From an uncultured Fibrobacterota bacterium (GTDB taxonomy: Bacteria > Fibrobacterota > Chitinivibrionia > Chitinivibrionales > FEN-1185), in contig CAVWBU010000036.1 in NCBI GenBank assembly GCA_963753345.1, positions 1 through 64,000 on the forward strand: a stretch of 64,000 nt of DNA, read 5' to 3'. How positions within the stretch are numbered: the first letter of the stretch is position 1; each line of letters opens with the position of its first letter. The notes under the pieces were generated by a model that saw only the letters and a list, made by a program, of their open reading frames with translations, was not told the DNA's origin and did no database searches. Positions 47,275 through 60,071 of this stretch are shown here, in pieces. A program made the position numbers and the translations under genes.

Positions 47275-48756
47275 ATGATCCGGGAATTTCGTGAACGTCT
47301 GAGATCGGACTGGCCGGTTGTCGGTGTGACTGCTGCGATTCTGCTTCTCCTTCTCCTTCTTCCCCTTTTCTTTGGGGGACTGAGGGAAGATGGATACTGC
47401 ACGTACAGGATAATGTGGCTCAATTACCTCGGGCACCGGTTCAAGCTGCCCCTGGAAACCCCCAAGCCGCTGTACGCTCTGTTGTGCGGCGTCGTGGGCC
47501 ATGGCGCGCTGTATCCCGTGACGTGCACGCTGTGCGCCGGCATATGCGCGCTGCTGATGAAAATGGCGCAAAGGCTCGGGGCGAGCGCATGGCAGGGACT
47601 TGTCGCGTTCTGCCTGTTCCTTGTCGGCAACGCCATGGTCCTGCCGGAGTTTGTGATGGCGTCATACTACACGATACCCTATTTATTCCTCACGCTGGCG
47701 GCGGTATATGCTTTTGTAAGTAAACGCCCCCTCCCGGCGATGTTCTTTCTGCTGGGCGCGGGACTCCTCAGGCCCGAGGCGTGGCTGTTTGCGCCGGTGT
47801 TTATCCTTGCATCGGTATTCAGGAAAGAACGGGGGTTTTCCTGGTGGCTTCTGGCCTCTTTGACCGCCCCCCTCATATGGGTTCTGTTCGACGAAAGAAT
47901 ATCCGGAAGCCCCACTTACTCCCAGGATCTCACGGACTACTATGTGAAAACCCTGGGAATCATGCCTGTTTCGTTCGGCCAATTCTGGGGAGAGGCGGCC
48001 CGCGCCACGGCATCGACCTTTTTCCCGCCGACGCATCTGTTCGGGCTCGCGGCGCTGGTCTATGTGGCGGCCAGGACGCGGAGGCACGAGCACCTTGTGA
48101 TGGCAATCCTCGCGGTGGTGCCGTTTATGTTTCTCTGGCTCCTTTCCGCCGGTCATCCCGTGCTGGTTCAGACCAGATTTTTTGCTTTCCCGATGCTCGT
48201 ATGCTGTTTCTACGCAGCGCTTGTCATGAGGGAATTCTCAAAGAACAGGTGGATTCTTGTTCTGCTCTCCGCGGCACTCCTCTGCGGTTCGTTTCAATTC
48301 GGCATGCTGTCCGACACGGCGCGGCGGATACGGAATGACGGTGCGATAGAAGAGGCGCGAAAAGACCTTGTGGAATCCGTTAGAACCATGGAGAGCAATG
48401 CCGACGTTATCCTGTGCGGCCGCTCGGCCAGCTATTTTGCCTATCACCTCGGGGAGAGAGCGTCGCGCAAGCTGTTCATGTTCAGGGAGGCGGAAGCAAG
48501 AACGGATTTTGAAAAGAACTTTTCAAACGGGGTGGCTGTTTACATTCAGGACGATATGGCGGGCCTGGACAATGCCTTCAAGTTTCTTTCCGCACCGCGA
48601 ATATACGAGGTGAACGGCTACCGTTTCTCGCCAGTGAAGGTGACGACGCGCGGCAACGGGATCGTGTATGCCGTTGAGAGGCTGCCCCGGCGGCTCATCC
48701 CGCCGCAGGGCCTTGGCGCGGCGCCCCCGGCCGACAAAGCAGGCGGCAACCGGTGA
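47275..48756 (+). CDS. Polytopic membrane protein, GT-C glycosyltransferase-like
   Basis: More than 10 TM helices, PKPLY, AGLLRPEAWLF, soluble C-terminus. Confidence 0.6.
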   Translation: MIREFRERLRSDWPVVGVTAAILLLLLLLPLFFGGLREDGYCTYRIMWLNYLGHRFKLPLETPKPLYALLCGVVGHGALYPVTCTLCAGICALLMKMAQRLGASAWQGLVAFCLFLVGNAMVLPEFVMASYYTIPYLFLTLAAVYAFVSKRPLPAMFFLLGAGLLRPEAWLFAPVFILASVFRKERGFSWWLLASLTAPLIWVLFDERISGSPTYSQDLTDYYVKTLGIMPVSFGQFWGEAARATASTFFPPTHLFGLAALVYVAARTRRHEHLVMAILAVVPFMFLWLLSAGHPVLVQTRFFAFPMLVCCFYAALVMREFSKNRWILVLLSAALLCGSFQFGMLSDTARRIRNDGAIEEARKDLVESVRTMESNADVILCGRSASYFAYHLGERASRKLFMFREAEARTDFEKNFSNGVAVYIQDDMAGLDNAFKFLSAPRIYEVNGYRFSPVKVTTRGNGIVYAVERLPRRLIPPQGLGAAPPADKAGGNR

Positions 48757-48914
48757 AGCTCCCCGAGCTGCCGCAAGGAGTTTTCCAGCAGAAAACGTTT
48801 TCTTGCGGACAGCCTTGCCAAGGTGCCTCTTTTGTCTTATATTGTAGAGTGATCATTGGAGATTTGATCGGTGCCGGGACAGGTGCGCAAAAACAACCTT
48901 TTTTAGGGGGTATC

Positions 48915-50705
48915 ATGAAAAGACAGTTGTTCATTGGTGCAACGGCATTGATGGCGTTCCTTATTGTTGAGGCCAATGCAGGTTTGGTGGCGTACTGGGA
49001 TTTCAACGAGGGGAGCGGAGCCTTATTGCATGATAAAAGCGGACATGGCAACGATGGGACAATTTACGGCGCATCGTGGGCCTCGGGATTGACAGGCTCG
49101 TCACTCTATTTCAACGGAACAACCAACTACGTCGTACTGCCTAATCCGCTCCCCTTCGAGCTCCCGCGTTTTACCATCGCATGCTGGATAAAGCCGCAAG
49201 ACCCATATGTCGCGCAGTCAAGGGCCTTCTTCAGTAACTTGGAGGCGGTGTCCGGCGTGTCCAATGGCGTTTGCATTGAGCTCGATATCAGACATTATCT
49301 TCACTTCGTCGTTGCCAGGGCCGATAACCAGGATTACTGGTTGGAAATTAATGCAACAGTTAGCATCTCCGATAGTTCCTACCATTTTGCCGCCTGTAGC
49401 TATGACGGGGCGAGTCTCAAACTGTTTTTCGACGGCGTATTTGTTGCACAGGCACCATACAGCGGCGGCATCAGGTATAGCAATGTGATGCCCTATATCG
49501 GCGCTTCACCAAATGATATAAACCATCTAGGCTATTATAAGGGAAATATCGACGAAATGCGAGTGTATGACCAAGCGCTTTCCCTTTCGGAGTTGCTTGC
49601 TCTCTACAACAACAGGGGGCAAAGCGCCCTGGCGGAGTTCCTTATTCCGGTCCCGTCGCCCACCTATGACCGCCGTCCGGTCTTTTTCTGGCATCCCGTG
49701 AAAGGCGCAGGCGGATACAACATCCAGATTGACACCACCAGAAACTTCACCAATCCAATTATAAGCGTGGCTACAGCGGACACCTCTTTCAGGCCGGGTG
49801 CGGACCTTCCTATTGACACCATTTTTTGGCGGGTCATGGCAGGCGTCAATGACACACTCACCTATTTCTCGGACATCGGCTCCTTCCTCATACAGAATCC
49901 GAAGGTGCCGCTTCTCATCCCGTACGAGCCCAAGGTAACCCTGGAGCGGAAGCCCCTCTTACGGTGGCATCCGGTTGCGGGGGCTTCTTCGTACACGCTC
50001 GAGATCGGCAATGATGTCGCCTTTATCAATAATTCTTACATCATTCCTCTCAGCGACACTCAGTATTCGCCAACGGTCAACCTTCCCTTTGGCGAAACGT
50101 ACTGGCGTGTGCAATCAAGTCTTGCGCCTGCGTGGTCTGCCTTCGACATGTTCCAGATCGTTCCGGATTCGATACCCTTCCTGATCCGCTACAACGGGGC
50201 CGTGGTTTCGGCAGCGAAACCGTTGTTCGCGTGGCACCCGGTGGTCGGCGCCGCTTCATATACGGTTGAATTCGCCGGCAACGCTTCGTTTACAGGAGGA
50301 TATGTCGTGCCTCTCACTGACACGTCTTTCGCGCCTTTGGTTGCTCTATCGAATGGCACGTGGTTTTGGAGGGTAAGCTCAAGCAGGAACCCTGCGTTGT
50401 TTTGCGCCCCGGACAGCCTTGTGATCGCATCGGTGCTGGCGAGGACCGAACGCAGATCAGCGGCCGTACCGTTTGCCGTGCGGTCCTTTAAAAGCCGTTT
50501 CGAGATAACGGCCGACTTCTCCACAAATGCGAACGTGAAAATCACTCTGTTTACGGCGGGTGGAAAGAAGGTTCTGGAGCGTTGCGTGACCGCCTGCGGT
50601 ACAACGGTTTCAATCGACGCAGTAGAAGTCCCGACCGGCATTTACCTGATGGAATTAGTGGCAGGGGAGAAGTGCATCAGGCAGAAGGTGATGGTGGCAC
50701 GGTAG
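48915..50705 (+). CDS. Secreted LamG-domain protein with three Ig/FN3-like repeats and T9SS-like tail
   Basis: LVAYWDFNEGSG..DKSG, GNIDEMRVYDQAL; three P.(F/L).WHPV.GA..Y repeats; LFTAGGK..TGIY. Confidence 0.85.
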   Translation: MKRQLFIGATALMAFLIVEANAGLVAYWDFNEGSGALLHDKSGHGNDGTIYGASWASGLTGSSLYFNGTTNYVVLPNPLPFELPRFTIACWIKPQDPYVAQSRAFFSNLEAVSGVSNGVCIELDIRHYLHFVVARADNQDYWLEINATVSISDSSYHFAACSYDGASLKLFFDGVFVAQAPYSGGIRYSNVMPYIGASPNDINHLGYYKGNIDEMRVYDQALSLSELLALYNNRGQSALAEFLIPVPSPTYDRRPVFFWHPVKGAGGYNIQIDTTRNFTNPIISVATADTSFRPGADLPIDTIFWRVMAGVNDTLTYFSDIGSFLIQNPKVPLLIPYEPKVTLERKPLLRWHPVAGASSYTLEIGNDVAFINNSYIIPLSDTQYSPTVNLPFGETYWRVQSSLAPAWSAFDMFQIVPDSIPFLIRYNGAVVSAAKPLFAWHPVVGAASYTVEFAGNASFTGGYVVPLTDTSFAPLVALSNGTWFWRVSSSRNPALFCAPDSLVIASVLARTERRSAAVPFAVRSFKSRFEITADFSTNANVKITLFTAGGKKVLERCVTACGTTVSIDAVEVPTGIYLMELVAGEKCIRQKVMVAR

Positions 50706-51940: not shown

Positions 51941-53098
51941 TTACCCTTCCAGCGTTATCCTCGCCCTTCCCTCGCGCTTTGACCGGTAGAGCGCCTCGTC
52001 GGTCCGCTTCACGATGCTCTTTTCGTCTTCGCCCGCCATTGCCTCCGCGATGCCGATGGAAAGGCTCACCCTTCCGAATTTGAACGCGCCGAACTGCTTG
52101 GAGATACGCTCCGCCGCGACTTTTGCCTGGTTCTTGTCGGTGTCGGGAAGAATGACGGCGAACTCGTCGCCGCCGTAACGGAAGCCGGCGTCGACGTCTT
52201 TACGGATGCATACCTTGATTACCTGGCCGAGCGACCTGAGCACCTGGTCTCCCACCTGGTGGCCTTCGGTGTCGTTGAGCTCTTTGAAGTGATCGATGTC
52301 GATGAGCATGATCGACAGCTTGCGCTGCGGGTTGCGCTTGAGCCGGGAGAGCTCGCGCACGATCTGGTCGTAGAAATGCCGCACGTTGAACAGTTCGGTG
52401 AGGCTGTCGGTGATGGCAAGCTTCGACAGCAGCTCGTTCTTCTTGACAAGCTCGTTTTCGAGCTTCTTCTTCTCCGTGATGTCCTTGGCCGTCACCACGA
52501 GGCCGATGATCTGCTCGGCGTCGTTTTTCATCTCAGAAATGCTCAGGTTGAGAAGGATGATTTCACCCTGTTTGGTTTTCATGGGGATTTCTTCGTTCAC
52601 CGATTTTCCGGAAAGAATGACCGCATTGAGGATCTTGCGCTCGTCGGCTTCATTGACAAAAAGTTGCTTGAGCGGCACGCCTACGATCTCCTCCTGAATG
52701 TAGCCGAAGTGCATTTCCGAGCCTTTGTTGAATTTGAGGATGAAGGCGTCGACGTCGGTGGTGAAGATGATGTCGGTCGAATCGTCCAGGATGCTCTGGA
52801 GATAGTTCGATTTCGCAAGGGTCCTTCGCATCGTAAGCTGGGTCTTCTCCATTCTCTTGACAAATTCCCTGATGTACTTGAAGAAGCCGAAGAGGAGGCC
52901 GCCAAGGAGTGAGGCGGCGAGCAACGAAACGAATGCGGCCCAGATCCATTGCGGGGACTTAAACAGCCCCAGAAACACCGCGAATACGAGAATCACCGCA
53001 AAGCACAATGCTCCCGCAGCGACAATCGTTTTTTGCGGTATACCGCTGTAGTTGTTGTAATTTGGAAGAAACGGCTTTATCAGGTTCACGTTGTTCAT
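51941..53098 (-). CDS. Membrane-anchored PAS-GGDEF diguanylate cyclase
   Basis: 2 TM helices, PAS/PAC (DITEKK), TDSLT, DIDHFKELND, RYGGDEF with RKDVD I-site-like motif. Confidence 0.92.
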   Translation of the reverse strand: MNNVNLIKPFLPNYNNYSGIPQKTIVAAGALCFAVILVFAVFLGLFKSPQWIWAAFVSLLAASLLGGLLFGFFKYIREFVKRMEKTQLTMRRTLAKSNYLQSILDDSTDIIFTTDVDAFILKFNKGSEMHFGYIQEEIVGVPLKQLFVNEADERKILNAVILSGKSVNEEIPMKTKQGEIILLNLSISEMKNDAEQIIGLVVTAKDITEKKKLENELVKKNELLSKLAITDSLTELFNVRHFYDQIVRELSRLKRNPQRKLSIMLIDIDHFKELNDTEGHQVGDQVLRSLGQVIKVCIRKDVDAGFRYGGDEFAVILPDTDKNQAKVAAERISKQFGAFKFGRVSLSIGIAEAMAGEDEKSIVKRTDEALYRSKREGRARITLEG

Positions 53099-53345
53099 TC
53101 ACCTGATGAAATGTATCGTGAAGCGCAACCGCACTTTACAGCTTGCGCATCAACCGTTGAAAAAGGAATCATCTCATCTTATTCTACACTAATTTGTTAA
53201 ATAATAGAAGCAAAAAATGAGACGCTTGGTTTTTCGGTTTGTTTAAGCGCTTATTGATGATTACGAACCATGCTCTTTTTTCTTGTACGAAATGGACAAG
53301 CATATAGTATTTATGTCCAGGTTTGAGCAACAAGTAAGGTAAATC

Positions 53346-53726
53346 ATGCTCGGCAGAATAGACAAGACAAAAGGTCAGATGGAGGCCGAAATAAGCGACG
53401 CCGTCACCCGGTTCGAAAAAGAATTCATGGGACGGGGCCCGCTGGAGACGAGGACCTACATCATAGACGACATGGTGATCGTCCGGCTCAAGGGCGTGCT
53501 TACCAGAGCGGAATACCGCCTTGTGAAGTCGGAGCGCAACTCCAAGGCCCGCGACCTTGTCAAGCAGGTGCGCATTGAGCTGCTCGAAAACGGCAGGCCG
53601 CTGCTCGAGGACATCATCAGGGACGTGCTCAAGCGCAAGGTCAAGAGCATGCACACCGATATCAGTACCATGAGCGGGGAGCGGATCATTATCTTCACCC
53701 TCGACAGGGCCGCTCTGGAAGACTGA
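53346..53726 (+). CDS. DUF2294 / MpsC-family protein
   Basis: KTKGQMEAEIS..FEKEFMGRGP..LTRAE..HTDISTMSGERIIIFTL. Confidence 0.88.
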   Translation: MLGRIDKTKGQMEAEISDAVTRFEKEFMGRGPLETRTYIIDDMVIVRLKGVLTRAEYRLVKSERNSKARDLVKQVRIELLENGRPLLEDIIRDVLKRKVKSMHTDISTMSGERIIIFTLDRAALED

Positions 53727-53833
53727 TTCCGCATATCGCAGAGTTTTCTTTGTCGCGCCCGGCAACCGTGAGTGTGACATTTTTCACCGGCGTGCAATTG
53801 CGTCTAAGTTTTTTCTTGCCGTTTTCCCGGGGC

Positions 53834-53842
53834 TGTTATAAT
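53834..53842 (+). promoter_or_regulatory. Extended -10 promoter for the pckG leader
   Basis: TGTTATAAT with TTGCCG upstream. Confidence 0.6.
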
Positions 53843-53849
53843 TTTTTAG

Positions 53850-54028
53850 TGCCGTACGGAAGCCGCGTGCAGGCGACCTGCTTGGTCGCGGGCGCTTGCG
53901 GATGCCGGAACGGACGCGGCCGGTTTGCAACCGGCCCGGTATCAAGCCCGGTTGACTCTTGCTCAAGGGGCAGTCCGGGGGTGAGGGCCAAGGAAATGCC
54001 GAAGGGTATTTCTCTGGTCTTTTTTTTT
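53850..54028 (+). promoter_or_regulatory. Candidate riboswitch or attenuator with intrinsic terminator
   Basis: Hairpins GGCCGGTT-TGC-AACCGGCC and CCCGG..CCGGG. GGTGAGGGCC overlaps the terminator GGCCAAGGAAATGCC-GAAG-GGTATTTCTCTGGTC-T9, about 100 nt before the pckG ATG. Confidence 0.65.
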
Positions 54029-54131
54029 ACCAGGATATCCGGGATTAAAACCGATTATCAGGATAACAGGGCAACAGACGGCATCACCGCAGGAATTGCG
54101 GTGGCTTCCTGACAAGAAAGAAAGGAATACC

Positions 54132-55940
54132 ATGGATGTGAAGGCGACCGCTTCCAACAAGAAACTCGAGCAGTGGGTAAAAGACATTGCCGGCATGTGT
54201 CAACCTGACGGCGTTCACTGGTGCGACGGCTCGCAGGAGGAATACGACGGCCTGTGCGCCCGGATGGTTTCGTCGGGCATGGCCACGCAGCTCAATCCGG
54301 CAAAGAAGCCGGGGTGTTTTCTGTTCCGCAGCCACCCGTCCGACGTGGCGCGCGTCGAAGACCGTACCTACGTGGCGCCGCATTCAAAGGATGATGCCGG
54401 TCCCACAAACAACTGGATGGATCCCGACGCGCTCAAGAAGAAAATGACCGGTTTGTACACAGGCTGCATGAAGGGCCGCACCATGTATGTCATTCCTTTT
54501 TCCATGGGGCCAATCGGCTCGCCGATATCGAAAATCGGCGTGGAAATCACGGATTCGCCCTACGTTGTGGTGAACATGAGGATTATGACCCGCATGGGAA
54601 AAAGAGTGCTTGACGCGCTCGGCGCGGACGGAGAGTTCGTTCCATGCCTTCATTCGGTGGGAGCGCCGCTTGCCAAAGGACAAAAGGATTCCGCATGGCC
54701 CTGCGCGCCCGATATCGCCAACAAATACATAAGCCATTTTCCCGAGGAGCGGACCATCTGGTCGTACGGGTCGGGCTACGGCGGCAACGCGCTTCTGGGC
54801 AAGAAATGTTTCGCGCTGCGCATTGCGTCGGTGCAGGCGCGCGATGAAGGGTGGCTGGCCGAGCACATGCTTATTCTGGGCATAACCAATCCTCAGGGAA
54901 AAAAGAAGTACTTTGCGGCAGCTTTTCCAAGCGCCTGCGGCAAGACCAACCTTGCCATGATGATTCCCACGATTCCCGGCTGGAAAGTGGAAACCGTCGG
55001 CGACGACATCGCCTGGATGAAGTTCGGCCCGGACGGAAGGCTGCACGCCATCAACCCTGAATCGGGTTTTTTCGGCGTGGTGCCGGGAACCTCCATGGAT
55101 TCGAACGCCAATGCCATGCTTTCCATTGAGAAGAACACGATTTATACCAATGTAGTGCTCACTCAGGACAAAGATGTCTGGTGGGAAGGAATAGGGTTCG
55201 ATCCTCCTGCGGGAAAAAACATCGACTGGACCGGACAGGAATGGGACATGACCATGCGCCGGACAGGCGCGCATCCGAATGCGCGGTTCACGGCCCCGGC
55301 CGCGCAATGCCCGGTCATTGATCCGGCATGGGAGGATCCGCAGGGAGTTCCGATAAGCGCGATCCTTGTCGGCGGCCGCAGGCCGACAACAATACCGCTT
55401 GTGCATCAGGCTTTTTCGTGGAACCACGGCGTTTTTCTCGGATCGATTGTCGGCTCTGAAACCACCACGGCAAACATCGGTGCGGTCGGCGTGGTCCGGC
55501 GCGACCCGTTTGCCATGCTTCCGTTCTGCGGATACCACATGGGCGACTATCTGGCGCATTGGATTGAAATCGGCAAGAAGACCGCGGCCGACAAACTGCC
55601 CAAGATTTTTTATGTGAACTGGTTCAGAAAAAGCGACGACGGCAAGTGGCTGTGGCCCGGCTACGGCGAAAACAGCCGGGTGCTCAAATGGATATTCGAG
55701 CGCACCGACGGCGCGACCAATGCCGTTGAATCTCCAATCGGCTACCTGCCCGCTCAAGGCGCCATAGACACCAGCGGTCTGCCGGTTGCGGCCTCGGACA
55801 TGAAGGAGCTGTTCAGGGTGGACGCAGCGGAGTGGAAGAAGGAACTGGAGGGGATCAAGGACCATTACAGGAAATTCGGATCAAGGCTGCCTGCGGCTCT
55901 TTCCGGCGAGCTTGCGGCTCTTGAGAAGCGGCTGGGATGA
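54132..55940 (+). CDS. pckG: Phosphoenolpyruvate carboxykinase (GTP)
   Basis: [40 protein letters not shown]. Confidence 0.97.
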
Positions 55941-56068
55941 CGGGCTACGATTGTTCACCAGGCTAGGGGTTTATTATATATTAATGAACCAGGCCACAAT
56001 CGCCCTTCCGGCTTGGCCAAAACCATAAAGAAACATCGCACTGCGACCACAACAGAAGGACATGAGCC

Positions 56069-56905
56069 GTGCCTTGGTTTATCAAGTCTAAGACTGCGGA
56101 AAAGCAGACCAAACCGGTCAAGGACGACATCTGGGTCAAGTGCGATTCCTGCAGCGCTCATGTTTTTAAGGAAGACTGGTACAATTCCCTCAATGTCTGT
56201 CCCAAATGCGGATTTCACGGCAAGCTCACGGCGTATGAGCGCATCGGGCAGATCCTCGACATTGAGACGTTCAAAGAAATGTTCGCCTCAATAACTCCGT
56301 CCGACCCACTCTCCTTTGTGTATGCCAAGGGCAGTTACAAAGACAAGGTGAAAGAAACCCGCGATAAAACCGGGCTCAATGAATCGGTCGTGTGCGGCAC
56401 GGGAGAAATCCATGAAATTCCCGTTTCGATAGCCGTAATGGATTTCCGGTTTTTCGGCGGCAGTCTGGGCAGCGGTACCGGAGAAAAGATCCTGCTTGCC
56501 TCAAACTACGCATACGAGCACAAAATCCCGTACATCATTTTTTCCGCCTCAGGCGGCGCGCGCATGCACGAAGGGATCCTTTCGCTCATGCAGATGGCCA
56601 AAACATGCGCCGGCATTGCACGGCTTCGCGAAAAGAAAATCCCCTACATTTCGGTCCTTACGGATCCGACGACGGGTGGCGTCGTTGCTAGTTATGCCAT
56701 GGTAGGCGACATCAACATCGCGGAACCAGGTGCGCTGGTCGGCTTTGCCGGCAGGCGCGTGATAGAGCAAACCATAAAGCAGAAACTGCCCGAAAATTTT
56801 CAGACCTCAGAGTACTTTCTTGAGCATGGCTTCATCGACCTTATCGTTGAGCGCAAGAATCTTAAAGAAACCTTGAAAAACGTTCTCCTCTACTACACCC
56901 GGTAA
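56069..56905 (+). CDS. accD: Acetyl-CoA carboxylase carboxyltransferase beta subunit
   Basis: WVKCDSC..CPKC Zn finger, SGGARM, PTTGGV, GFAGRRVIEQT. Confidence 0.94.
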   Translation: MPWFIKSKTAEKQTKPVKDDIWVKCDSCSAHVFKEDWYNSLNVCPKCGFHGKLTAYERIGQILDIETFKEMFASITPSDPLSFVYAKGSYKDKVKETRDKTGLNESVVCGTGEIHEIPVSIAVMDFRFFGGSLGSGTGEKILLASNYAYEHKIPYIIFSASGGARMHEGILSLMQMAKTCAGIARLREKKIPYISVLTDPTTGGVVASYAMVGDINIAEPGALVGFAGRRVIEQTIKQKLPENFQTSEYFLEHGFIDLIVERKNLKETLKNVLLYYTR

Positions 56906-56929
56906 AAGGTCCCAGCGGGGCAAATTCAT

Positions 56930-57880
56930 ATGAGCGATTATCTTGAATTTGAAAAGTCGATTGCCGAGATGGAGAAAATGATCGAGAAGCTCAAATCGAT
57001 CTCTCCCGACGAGAATCATTACAGCGACGAAATCGCCGAGCTTGAGAAAAAATGCCTCCACCAGAAGCAGGAGCTATACTCCAGCCTCACACCCTGGCAG
57101 ACGGTCCAGATCGCAAGGCATCCAAAGCGTCCCGTGCTGCAGGATTACATTTCGCTTATTTTTTCAGATTTCATCGAGCTTCACGGGGACCGCTGTTTCG
57201 GCGACGACCAGGCGCTCATCGGCGGGTTCGCCACCATCGGCAAGCGCCGGGTGATGCTTGTCGGCCACAACAAGGGCAAGAACGTCGACGAAAACGTATT
57301 GCGCAATTTCGGCCAAGCAAAGCCCGAGGGATATCGCAAGGCGCTCCGTCTCATGAGGCTTGCCGAGAAGTTCAATCTGCCCATACTTTGCTTTATCGAC
57401 ACGCAGGGCGCGTATCCAGGCGTCGACGCCGAAGAGCGCGGTCAGCCCGAAGCCATTGCCACCAACCTCACCGAAATGGCGCGTCTCGAAGTGCCCATAA
57501 TAGCCGTGGTCACCGGCGAAGGCGGCAGCGGCGGCGCGCTTGCCATCGGCGTGGGTGATTCGGTGCTCATGCTGTCGCATGCGGTGTATTCGGTGATTTC
57601 TCCCGAAGGGTGCGCATCCATTTTATGGCGCGATGCGTCATTTTCGCCCCAGGCCGCCGAGGCGATGAAGCCCACGGCCCAGTCGCTTCTGTCGCTGGGC
57701 GTGATAGACGAGATAATTCCTGAGCCCCTTGGAGGCGCCCACCGTAACCACGAACAGACCGGCCAGGAAATCAAGCGCGTGCTTCTCAAGCACCTCAAGA
57801 AACTGTGCGCCCAGTCTGCGTCGAGACTGGTGAGACACAGGTTCGAGAAATATTCAGCGATGGGATTGTTTGCAGATTAG
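56930..57880 (+). CDS. accA: Acetyl-CoA carboxylase carboxyltransferase alpha subunit
   Basis: YLEFEK, ELHGDR, PEGYRKA, GEGGSGGA, SVISPEGCA. Confidence 0.95.
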   Translation: MSDYLEFEKSIAEMEKMIEKLKSISPDENHYSDEIAELEKKCLHQKQELYSSLTPWQTVQIARHPKRPVLQDYISLIFSDFIELHGDRCFGDDQALIGGFATIGKRRVMLVGHNKGKNVDENVLRNFGQAKPEGYRKALRLMRLAEKFNLPILCFIDTQGAYPGVDAEERGQPEAIATNLTEMARLEVPIIAVVTGEGGSGGALAIGVGDSVLMLSHAVYSVISPEGCASILWRDASFSPQAAEAMKPTAQSLLSLGVIDEIIPEPLGGAHRNHEQTGQEIKRVLLKHLKKLCAQSASRLVRHRFEKYSAMGLFAD

Positions 57881-58079
57881 GTGCGCGTTTTTATGATCTG
57901 ACCGCAAAATCACCACAGAGACACAGAGGCCACAGAGAAAACGAGAGCGAGAATCAAGAATGAAATTCACCAGGTGCACCGTTTTTTCAAGGCTTTCAAC
58001 TTCCAACTCTCAACTTTGAACTCTTCTTCTCTCCACGGGGTGAAAGTATTTTAGTTTTTCAAACCAACAGGATACAACC

Positions 58080-60071
58080 ATGGCCGCCATAAAAAAACTG
58101 ACCATAGAAAACAAACTCCACAAGATCCCGCTGCGCATCACCGACACCACGCTGCGCGACGCGCACCAGTCGCTGTGGGCCACCCGCATGCGCACCGCGG
58201 ATATCGAAAAAATCATCGACGTCATCGACAACGTCGGCTATTATTCGCTGGAATGCTGGGGCGGCGCGACGTTCGACGTGTGCCTCCGTTTTCTCCGCGA
58301 GAACCCGTGGGAGCGTCTGAGGCTCATCAAGTCGAAGGCGAAGAAGACGCCGCTGCAGATGCTTCTGCGGGGGCAGAACCTTGTGGGATACCGCAACTAC
58401 GCCGACGACGTCGTCGACCGGTTCGTGGCCCTTGCCTGCGAAAACGGCATGGATATCTTCCGCGTGTTCGACGCGCTTAACGACACGCGCAACATCGAAG
58501 CAGCAGTGAGGGCGGTCAAGAAACACGGCGGTCACGCGCAGGGGACGCTGTGCTACACCATAAGCCCGGTGCACACCATCAAGAAATTCGTGTCGTACGC
58601 GCGCGAGCAGAAACAGCTCGGCGTGGATTCGATTTGCATCAAGGACATGGCGGGAATTCTTTCGCCCATCATGGCCGAGCGGCTCGTGAGCGCGCTTATC
58701 AAGGAGCTTGAAATACCCATCCAGCTCCATTGCCATGCCAGTTCCGGCATGGCGATCTCCAGCTACGTTGAAGGCGTCCGCGCCGGCGCGGGCGCGATCG
58801 ACTGCGCCATTGCCGCAATGGCCGGAACCAGCAGCCAACCGCCTGTTGAGACCATGGCCGCCATTTTTTCGGAGACCGACTATCACGCCGATCTCAACCG
58901 TGATGCCATGCTCCGCGTGCACCGGTACTTTGCCGACCTGTACGCTCAGCGCAACACCGACACGTCGCTCGTGTTCTGCATCGACCCCCAGATCCTCATC
59001 CACCAGATCCCGGGCGGCATGATCTCGAACTTCCGCTCCCAGCTCGCGAAGCAGAATGCGCTTGACAAACTGGAGGACGCGCTCACGGAAGTCACGCGCG
59101 TGCGCGAGGACCTCGGATGGCCGCCGCTCGTGACGCCCACGAGCCAGATCGTGGGGACACAGGCGGTGATGAACGTGCTTTCCGGCGAGCGATACAAGAT
59201 CGTCCCCAACGAGGTGAAGGACTATTTCCGCGGCCTGTACGGCCGCGCGCCGGCAAACGTGAACCCGGAACTGGCAAAGAAGATCCTCGGCGACGAGAAG
59301 CCCATCACCGTGCGGCCCGGCGACACCATCGCTCCCATGCTGCCCAAGGCGACCGAGGGAATAGATCCCAAGTACATCAAGAACGAGGAAGACATTATTT
59401 CGTACTGCATTCTTCCCGAGCCGAGCCTTGAGTATTTCAAGTGGCGCGACATGCCGCCGGACAAGCGTCCCGAAACGCCGGCGGACCTGGAGCTTAAGAA
59501 ACTGAGCGCTGCCGCAGAAAAGAAAACCGCGGTGACAACGGAGAAGAAAGAGGAGGCTCCTTTCCTCGACCAGATACTGCACCCCGAAGATTACCGCGGA
59601 CTCGGCGAACTCCTCAACAGGGCCGGAGGGCTTCGGCTTGACGAATTGACAGTTAAGAAAGGCGATTTTTCCCTGTCGCTCAGATCGGACACCACGAGAA
59701 TGCCTGTAATTCCCAAACCGGTTCCAACTGCCGCTCCCGGGGAGGCTTCTACAAAAAAAGAGGGCAAACCGGCAGAAGCCGGACCCGCGGCCGCAAAGGA
59801 AGAAAAGAGCGCGCCGATCCCAACGGTTGGACCGTCGATCAAGGCGCCTCTGGTCGGCGCGTTCTATTCCACGTCCGGACCGGGCAAGCCGAAGCTTGTG
59901 AACGTGGGAGACGTGGTGGAGGCCGGGACCAAGGTGTGCATCGTGGAGGCCATGAAGCTGTTCAACGAGATAGTTGCCCCTGTCAGGTGCAAGATCCTTC
60001 AGTTCCTCGTGGAGGACGGGACCACGGTGGAAAAGAACCAGCCGCTGATTGCCATAGAAGAATTAAAGTAA
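58080..60071 (+). CDS. Pyruvate/oxaloacetate carboxyltransferase (PycB/OadA/5S-like) fused to an AccB-type biotin carrier
   Basis: LRDAHQSL, WGGATFD, IKDMAG, HCH, PLVTPTSQIVG; C-terminal LDELTVKKGDFSLSL, linker, APLVGAFYS..PGKP, EAMKLFNEI. Confidence 0.9.
   Translation: MAAIKKLTIENKLHKIPLRITDTTLRDAHQSLWATRMRTADIEKIIDVIDNVGYYSLECWGGATFDVCLRFLRENPWERLRLIKSKAKKTPLQMLLRGQNLVGYRNYADDVVDRFVALACENGMDIFRVFDALNDTRNIEAAVRAVKKHGGHAQGTLCYTISPVHTIKKFVSYAREQKQLGVDSICIKDMAGILSPIMAERLVSALIKELEIPIQLHCHASSGMAISSYVEGVRAGAGAIDCAIAAMAGTSSQPPVETMAAIFSETDYHADLNRDAMLRVHRYFADLYAQRNTDTSLVFCIDPQILIHQIPGGMISNFRSQLAKQNALDKLEDALTEVTRVREDLGWPPLVTPTSQIVGTQAVMNVLSGERYKIVPNEVKDYFRGLYGRAPANVNPELAKKILGDEKPITVRPGDTIAPMLPKATEGIDPKYIKNEEDIISYCILPEPSLEYFKWRDMPPDKRPETPADLELKKLSAAAEKKTAVTTEKKEEAPFLDQILHPEDYRGLGELLNRAGGLRLDELTVKKGDFSLSLRSDTTRMPVIPKPVPTAAPGEASTKKEGKPAEAGPAAAKEEKSAPIPTVGPSIKAPLVGAFYSTSGPGKPKLVNVGDVVEAGTKVCIVEAMKLFNEIVAPVRCKILQFLVEDGTTVEKNQPLIAIEELK

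Follow-up and report, generated by a model that had tools for sequence, protein, structure and literature searches.

What decides whether pckG, the gene for a GTP-dependent phosphoenolpyruvate carboxykinase (PEPCK), is transcribed in an uncultured bacterium of the Fibrobacterota? In the window analysed here, a stretch of 64,000 nucleotides (nt) of contig CAVWBU010000036.1 (assembly GCA_963753345.1), pckG is separated by a 405-nt spacer from mpsC, which encodes a small protein of the DUF2294 family, and a first-pass annotation made from the sequence alone had read part of this spacer as a riboswitch-like leader. We find there an RNA that is conserved in relatives, has a covarying structure, and keeps a fixed position and orientation before PEPCK, accD or fabD genes. 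Leaving its effector aside, the leader is very probably a cis-acting transcription attenuator of a pckG-accD-accA-pycB-like operon, which probably switches genes for carboxylation and for the start of fatty-acid synthesis on or off. Through this RNA, pckG, accDA and fabDG would be controlled as one set in a lineage that has received little study.

Fold of the leader RNA

The leader extends for about 283 nt after the extended -10 element of its predicted promoter, and the first ~180 nt make up the conserved RNA, with a predicted transcription start near 53849 (Table 1). In 30 of the 46 related places described below, the promoter can be assigned in the same arrangement, with CTTGC followed after 16-19 nt by TATAAT or TATCTT. 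In the window the -35-like hexamer lies 15-16 nt from the -10 element, outside the 16-18 nt range of the consensus scan, and the promoter is therefore absent from that scan, which does list the terminator core (53992-54013). The segment 53840-54135 folds (RNAfold) at -127.8 kcal/mol, against a mean of -102.4 kcal/mol (standard deviation 5.0) for shuffled sequences (z -5.06), and none of the 200 shuffles is as stable. An extended -10 at 53834, a leader of ~280 nt, GC hairpins, a module of GGT (53938-53940), CCCGG, CCGGG and GGTGAGGGCC, and a T9 terminator had been listed in the first-pass annotation, and all of them are in place.

Two hairpin domains precede the terminator, joined by a linker that differs among genera. 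An equivalent of the long, irregular 5' hairpin is predicted in 30/30 folded RNAs (those with a placeable -10 element). In a sub-alignment of 16 sequences, 87% of the cells of this hairpin are paired and its covariation is 0.429, compared with 0.226 after shuffling (0/500 shuffles), in a test whose structure was copied from one member and thus leans towards itself. The 3' domain begins with GGU and helix 1 (UCA/UGA), followed by a 2x2 purine-rich internal loop and then by a hairpin between CCCGG (53947-53951) and CCGGG (53975-53979) with an inner A.G mismatch; its 3' side continues into GGTGAGGGCC at 53980-53989, of which the final GGCC opens the terminator stem. Across the 30-sequence alignment, 94.4% of the cells of this domain are in standard pairs, both sides have changed in 25 of 30 pairs, and covariation is 0.436, compared with 0.173 after shuffling (0/500) and at most 0.125 when the partners are slid; this alignment was fitted to the model structure and favours it, a bias that the slid controls carry as well. 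Both hairpin domains carry compensatory changes, i.e., their structure is under selection. RNAalifold, applied to MAFFT alignments of the full-length RNAs of all families, recovered only the terminator, and nothing from mixed 5' hairpins; recovery of structure in this manner succeeded in sub-alignments only.

Two other features of the leader were considered and set aside. CsrA-like GGA motifs were dropped because the family consensus contains no GGA motif, and a 120-amino acid (aa) open reading frame (ORF) running across the leader (53750-54112) was rejected as a gene, because the same-genus relatives L002, L004 and L005 have no ORF of at least 100 aa on that strand.

Distribution of the RNA

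BLASTN searches with the 3' part detect it in four of the five remaining genomes of the genus and also in a single genome from another family, each time before a PEPCK gene, and an alignment of six sequences already contains compensatory changes. The first covariance model (R1), built for the 3' domain, matches in 30 of the 81 genomes of the window's order, and a second model built on those 30 sequences (R2) matches in 36 of the 81 species genomes; the class comprises the same 81 genomes. In the 151-genome phylum sample, the strict search outside the order gives 0/79, including 0/55 in family f10. When the filters are switched off, matches at 48.7 and 35.8 bits appear at two mpsC loci in family f13, likewise outside the order, and the strict search therefore undercounts.

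On a wider scale, 19 stretches emerged from a pattern scan over 185,579 species genomes; R2 confirms 10 of them at 60.9 bits or more, all in contigs titled Fibrobacter, Fibrobacteres or Chitinispirillaceae. The other nine (from Jeotgalicoccus, Verrucomicrobiales, Planctomycetia and others) score at most 30.5 bits with R2 or not at all. Among metagenome contigs, 12 of 17 pattern stretches are confirmed, and the gene context is the same in 12/12. The RNA is a conserved, structured element of one branch of the Fibrobacterota. Aligning leaders near DUF2294 genes and looking for covariation, as had been suggested for this locus, thus brought out both conservation and covariation in relatives.

Genes downstream of the RNA

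The RNA was located in 46 places, 41 from strict searches and five weaker ones found beside mpsC with the filters off. One further match (G064:C23, R2 E value 6.6e-4) was dropped before this count as a likely false positive, because no downstream gene of the kinds named here lies within reach. In 46/46 places a co-directional gene follows directly: PEPCK in 31, accD in 12 and fabD in three (with Pfam checks). Family f2 includes three genomes with more than one copy of the RNA (two or three each), located ahead of a divergent GTP-PEPCK gene, accD-accA and fabD-fabG; where relatives lack pckG at the site, accD is the gene that directly follows the RNA.

In the 11 relatives with a called start, 33-76 nt, Shine-Dalgarno sequence included, lie between the last U of the tract and the start codon. 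Such a short stretch could not accommodate an ordinary separate promoter in the relatives, so that transcription of the gene must pass through the terminator, which in turn becomes a control point. The RNA thus combines two properties of a cis-regulatory leader, a covarying structure and a constant position and orientation 5' of related genes. The first-pass view of a riboswitch-like leader that controls pckG and possibly acc is borne out to this extent: the R1 and R2 matches, the covariation and the context of all 46 places point to a real leader with conserved structure and a terminator, in a position to control pckG and, among relatives, acc genes as well.

Terminator and proposed switch

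A stem-loop directly followed by a U-tract, the signature of an intrinsic terminator, is found in all 30 aligned relatives. The sequence of its stem is conserved across families, that of the lower stem unusually so. The stem also keeps an internal mismatch (53991/54014 in the window; alignment columns 72/123). Of the 30 sequences, 27 have a non-Watson-Crick combination at this position, A.C in 19 of them; the mismatch would destabilise the very segment of the stem whose displacement the switch requires. Sensing of pH through an A.C mismatch was considered and is not claimed, since the position holds several kinds of mismatch besides A.C. Helix 1 stops two bases before the terminator stem, and the bases 5' of AUCA (GGU in the window, mostly GGUU elsewhere) are able to pair with G(G/A)CC at the terminator base. 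When the RNAs are cut before the 3' strand of the terminator, RNAfold predicts this GGUU-like:G(G/A)CC pairing in most of the 30.

These features suggest the following mechanism. Transcription from the leader's own promoter would produce an RNA of ~180 nt comprising the 5' hairpin, the 3' hairpin (AUCA..UGA, with purine-rich mismatches) and the terminator. The terminator is far more stable than an extension of 3-5 pairs, so that by default it would form and leave pckG off, and an effector would be required for read-through. Read-through would need the 3' hairpin to be extended by pairing of GGU (53938-40) with GCC (53987-89), which would remove the base of the terminator stem. The effector may be the adjacent small, basic MpsC, perhaps together with a small ligand, binding the 3' hairpin as an antiterminator. 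As a full statement, an attenuator with MpsC as its effector is our preferred but tentative reading, in which the fold switch and the identity of the effector are the steps that we infer.

Association of the RNA with mpsC

MpsC of the window is a full-domain member of PF10057 (128.9 bits, cut-off 23, profile positions 1-111 of 111). In 33 of the 46 places, mpsC lies at most 600 nt upstream of the RNA on the same strand. PF10057 is present in 54 of the 81 genomes of the order, and an mpsC match is found in 36/36 R2-positive genomes, while the RNA is found in 0/27 genomes without one. Among the 18 genomes that have mpsC and no strict RNA match, five give weaker matches located after mpsC and before pck or accD. 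Each of the three multi-copy genomes has a single mpsC match, beside the accD copy in two of them and apart from the copies found in the third. The regulator gene and its presumed RNA target are thus linked across genomes, with relatives entering as non-independent counts.

In an alignment of 40 MpsC sequences, those encoded beside this RNA are basic, with an isoelectric point (pI) of 9.2-10.3, and those from other contexts have a pI of 5.4-8.2. The latter range includes the near neutral or acidic MpsC encoded near DUF4914 or carbonic anhydrase genes, and downstream paralogues have a pI of 4.6-6.3.

In other parts of the phylum, a leader with a terminator again comes after mpsC, but precedes genes for DUF4914, for carbonic anhydrase and citrate synthase, or for a PEPCK-like protein. 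A constant order of mpsC and leader with varying targets is as expected of a regulator and its RNA site, and not of a metabolite riboswitch. In seven of these loci (Table 1) the leader is of a second type, with a GGCARGU..GAGAAG.. hairpin and with GUGAGGAA in the 5' strand of the terminator, and it precedes an mpsC paralogue and DUF4914, DUF4914 alone, or a putative carbonic anhydrase and citrate synthase. The GUUAG at its 5' side duplicates the GUUAG of the terminator 5' strand and could therefore compete for the same partner. The proteins of ~590-600 aa encoded after an mpsC leader in family f13 (L113:960-2729(-), L114:1233-3038(+)) belong to no Pfam family; their sole family match is to the PEPCK model NF006821, sub-threshold at 22.5-22.6 bits (cut-off 369) over profile positions ~170-290.

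The gene neighbourhoods and the co-occurrence suit the DUF2294-linked antiterminator that the first-pass annotation had put forward as one possibility. In its most specific form, which we consider doubtful, MpsC would be a new ligand-sensing, RNA-binding antiterminator that recognises the AUCA..UGA hairpin and its purine mismatches and passes a metabolic signal, for which inorganic carbon or an acyl or malonyl thioester would be candidates, to PEPCK, acetyl-CoA carboxyltransferase and FabD/FabG. If this were true, the MpsC family would have additional targets in the leaders found after mpsC and ahead of DUF4914, carbonic anhydrase/citrate synthase and PEPCK-like genes. The RNA also provides a first hypothesis, open to test, on what DUF2294/MpsC does, a small and widespread protein for which no function is known.

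Several observations weigh against MpsC as the effector and against the proposed fold switch. The co-occurrence counts overstate the support because kin are not independent, and no adjacent mpsC is present in 13 of the 46 places. In genus g22, pckG is present in 7/7 genomes and an mpsC match in 0/7; in the three pckG leaders of this genus that were examined (Table 1), promoter and conserved terminator are retained, R2 matches the terminator only, and the place of the AUCA..UGA hairpin is taken by another conserved sequence that contains two GGAGCGG-like repeats. The promoter-terminator part therefore works, or survives, without an mpsC match. The adjacency of mpsC could instead reflect a partnership of MpsC with the downstream enzymes. 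In addition, deletion of mpsC in Staphylococcus aureus gives no phenotype, according to an excerpt of PMC6689103. The link of MpsC to the MpsAB/DabAB transporters, which the first-pass annotation had given as known, holds, by that same excerpt, only for staphylococci.

Nor is an RNA-binding fold recognisable by Foldseek or VIA-align in the AlphaFold2 model of MpsC (pLDDT 91). The best Foldseek E value is 0.014 (YslB, TRAPP Bet3 and H-NOX-like small-ligand domains) and the best VIA-align Z score is 6.7, both weak. Chains of HutP, TRAP, PyrR, CAT and ANTAR are not among the MpsC matches listed, although a fold of this kind may be present even where matches are weak or absent. The MpsC sequence gives chance-level matches only against the PDB (E value at least 0.26), and literature searches for DUF2294, DUF4914 and MpsC as a whole word turned up nothing relevant among the papers listed.

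Finally, in a fixed alignment register the competing helix has 63% of its cells paired and shows no covariation. Of the mutually exclusive ON-switch folds that had been proposed for this leader, the GGU/GCC pairing is predicted in most of the 30 truncated RNAs, and covariation in support of it is lacking; the competing fold is plausible, not proven.

A metabolite as possible effector

The close rival of MpsC is a metabolite. The 5' and 3' hairpins would then form an aptamer for a compound of the phosphoenolpyruvate, oxaloacetate, malonyl-CoA or bicarbonate node, ligand binding alone would decide between extension of helix 1 and the terminator, and mpsC would merely be a functionally related neighbour. 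The classic layout of a promoter, a covarying domain and a terminator before related genes, in several copies per genome, is what a riboswitch would present, and both the g22 leaders in genomes without an mpsC match and the 13 places without adjacent mpsC speak for it. No riboswitch or leader RNA for PEPCK or for the first steps of fatty-acid synthesis was found in the literature searched (subscription journals and supplements lay outside it), and the term 'fatty acid' is absent from the searchable text of a 2020 review of orphan riboswitches (PMC7266159). Against this reading, the hairpin loops and lengths vary widely, few unpaired positions are conserved, the 2x2 internal loop is itself variable (AG/GG, GG/AG, UA/AU), and the strongest sequence conservation resides in the terminator stem and not in a junction. 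The tight co-occurrence of mpsC and the RNA would also be left unexplained. We consider direct control by a metabolite somewhat unlikely; if it were correct, the RNA would represent a new orphan riboswitch class with a regulon clear enough to guess the ligand. In sum, we place MpsC first among candidate effectors, tentatively, followed by a directly bound metabolite, and assign the remainder to other factors or to a role in trans.

Other possible roles for the element

It is improbable that the element is an independent gene for a trans-acting small RNA, possibly besides a cis role, with pckG transcribed from a promoter of its own. The conserved promoter and strong terminator, a stem sequence conserved as in a functional stable RNA, and the 104 nt between the end of the terminator and the pckG ATG (54132) of the window would be compatible with such a gene. 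Against it stands the gene context: the same syntax is shared by the fabD and PEPCK copies, every one of the 46 places lies directly before one of three kinds of gene in the same orientation, and the short spacers of the 11 relatives already include the Shine-Dalgarno sequence.

A non-regulatory element, in which the hairpin and U9 serve as the terminator of mpsC or as an insulator behind a long structured 3' untranslated region, would agree with its location after mpsC in 33 of the 46 places, but is very improbable given the conserved promoter between mpsC and the RNA, the selection on the upstream hairpins that the covariation reveals, and the 13 places without upstream mpsC, among them all the fabD copies and most of the divergent-PEPCK copies.

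Membership in the DUF1646 (Na+-I) or nhaA-I riboswitch family, the former suggested as a loose resemblance in the first-pass annotation, has virtually no probability: nothing was found in its favour, and cmscan of 52900-54400 against all 4227 families of Rfam 15 at E values up to 10 gave five chance-level rows, none reaching an E value of 1 on the element and none for DUF1646 or nhaA-I, which refutes it at the level of family models. The chance-level rows that overlap the leader are the snoRNA sn2343 (15.2 bits, gathering threshold 60) and RsmY (11.2 bits, gathering threshold 57), and 19 related loci have no Rfam 15 match at an E value of 0.1 or below. The resemblance to the Na+ riboswitch therefore fails. 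Both are leaders that carry a terminator; they differ in the model match, which is missing here, and in the associated genes. The first-pass interpretation is thus supported in part, in that the leader for pckG and acc is genuine and riboswitch-like, its ON layout is plausible and its tie to DUF2294 is real.

Comparison with known regulatory systems

HutP at the hut operon, BglG-SacY-LicT at RAT sites and PyrR act on protein-dependent antitermination leaders. As in these systems, a small regulator gene lies beside the leader, a hairpin overlaps or abuts an intrinsic terminator, and one regulator gene would be able to serve several target leaders per genome. The differences are that no fold shared with these proteins turns up among the matches listed for MpsC, that binding of MpsC to RNA is a step of our model, and that a promoter located between mpsC and the RNA serves the RNA itself. 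The adenine (pbuE/ydhL) class is a terminator-based ON riboswitch, in which, as proposed here, a closing helix shares bases with the 5' strand of the terminator, so that stabilisation of the domain leads to read-through. It differs from the present RNA, in which a conserved junction of several helices is not apparent, the bases in common amount to 3-5 pairs without covariation, and no Rfam family is matched. FapR, FabT and FadR are DNA-binding repressors of fatty-acid synthesis genes, and their targets overlap with those of the leader in acc, fabD and fabG; control here would be exerted by an RNA leader, and would include PEPCK. The RNA family and its regulon are new, whereas the mechanism is of a known regulatory kind.

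Genes of the window

Table 1. Coordinates of the leader, its flanking genes and the comparison leaders (window positions unless a locus is named)
Feature	Position	Strand	Details
mpsC (DUF2294)	53346..53726	+	126 aa, pI 9.29; PF10057
Short hairpin and T-run after mpsC, weak terminator-like site	53789..53814	+	Pattern scan
Predicted leader promoter	53815..53842	+	CTTGCC 53815-53820 (-35-like); extended -10 TGTTATAAT 53834-53842
5' domain, long irregular hairpin	53849..53917	+	Minimum free energy fold; compensatory changes within the genus
Short GC linker hairpin, GGCCGG..CCGGCC	53918..53936	+	Minimum free energy fold; specific to this genome and near relatives
3' domain	53938..53984	+	GGU 53938-40; helix 1 UCA/UGA (53942-44 with 53982-84); models R1, R2
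Intrinsic terminator	53985..54028	+	15-pair stem 53985-54019/20, GAAG loop, U9 (T9 54020-54028)
Spacer to pckG	54029..54131	+	Local hairpin ~54085-54103; Shine-Dalgarno region GAAAGGAA
pckG, GTP-dependent PEPCK	54132..55940	+	ATG 54132; PF17297 and PF00821 (PEPCK_N, PEPCK_GTP)
accD	56069-56905	+	Pfam; NCBIfam accD equivalog
accA	56930-57880	+	Pfam
Pyruvate carboxylase subunit B-like protein	58080-60071	+	663 aa; HMGL-like, PYC_OADA and biotinyl domains (Pfam); PRK09282 (NCBIfam)
Second leader type	L065:2886-2985	-	
Second leader type	L066:1440-1541	+	
Second leader type	L070:2891-2990	-	
Second leader type	L071:1438-1536	+	
Second leader type	L072:2897-2993	-	
Second leader type	L112:2820-2918	-	
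Second leader type	L110:924-1017	+	
g22 pckG leader	L115:1310-1473	+	
g22 pckG leader	L116:1355-1519	+	
g22 pckG leader	L117:895-1057	-	

In the window, pckG would be the first gene under the control of the leader. The genes for AccD, AccA and the PycB-like protein (56069..60071) are probably in one operon with it, and no T-run terminator is found in the pckG-accD spacer. Upstream, a gene for a PAS-GGDEF diguanylate cyclase (51941-53098) is divergent from mpsC, and a 650-aa Laminin_G_3 protein (48753-50705) has a weak, sub-threshold match to Por_Secre_tail, a type IX secretion sorting tail. In the relatives inspected, the RNA has neither of these two genes beside it.

Downstream of the leader, the pckG-accD-accA cluster (54132-60071) includes a 5S-type carboxyltransferase fused to a biotin carrier, and no biotin carboxylase was matched among the four ORFs scanned downstream. 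As judged from its gene content, the cluster would fit production of malonyl-CoA by transcarboxylation from oxaloacetate supplied by PEPCK.

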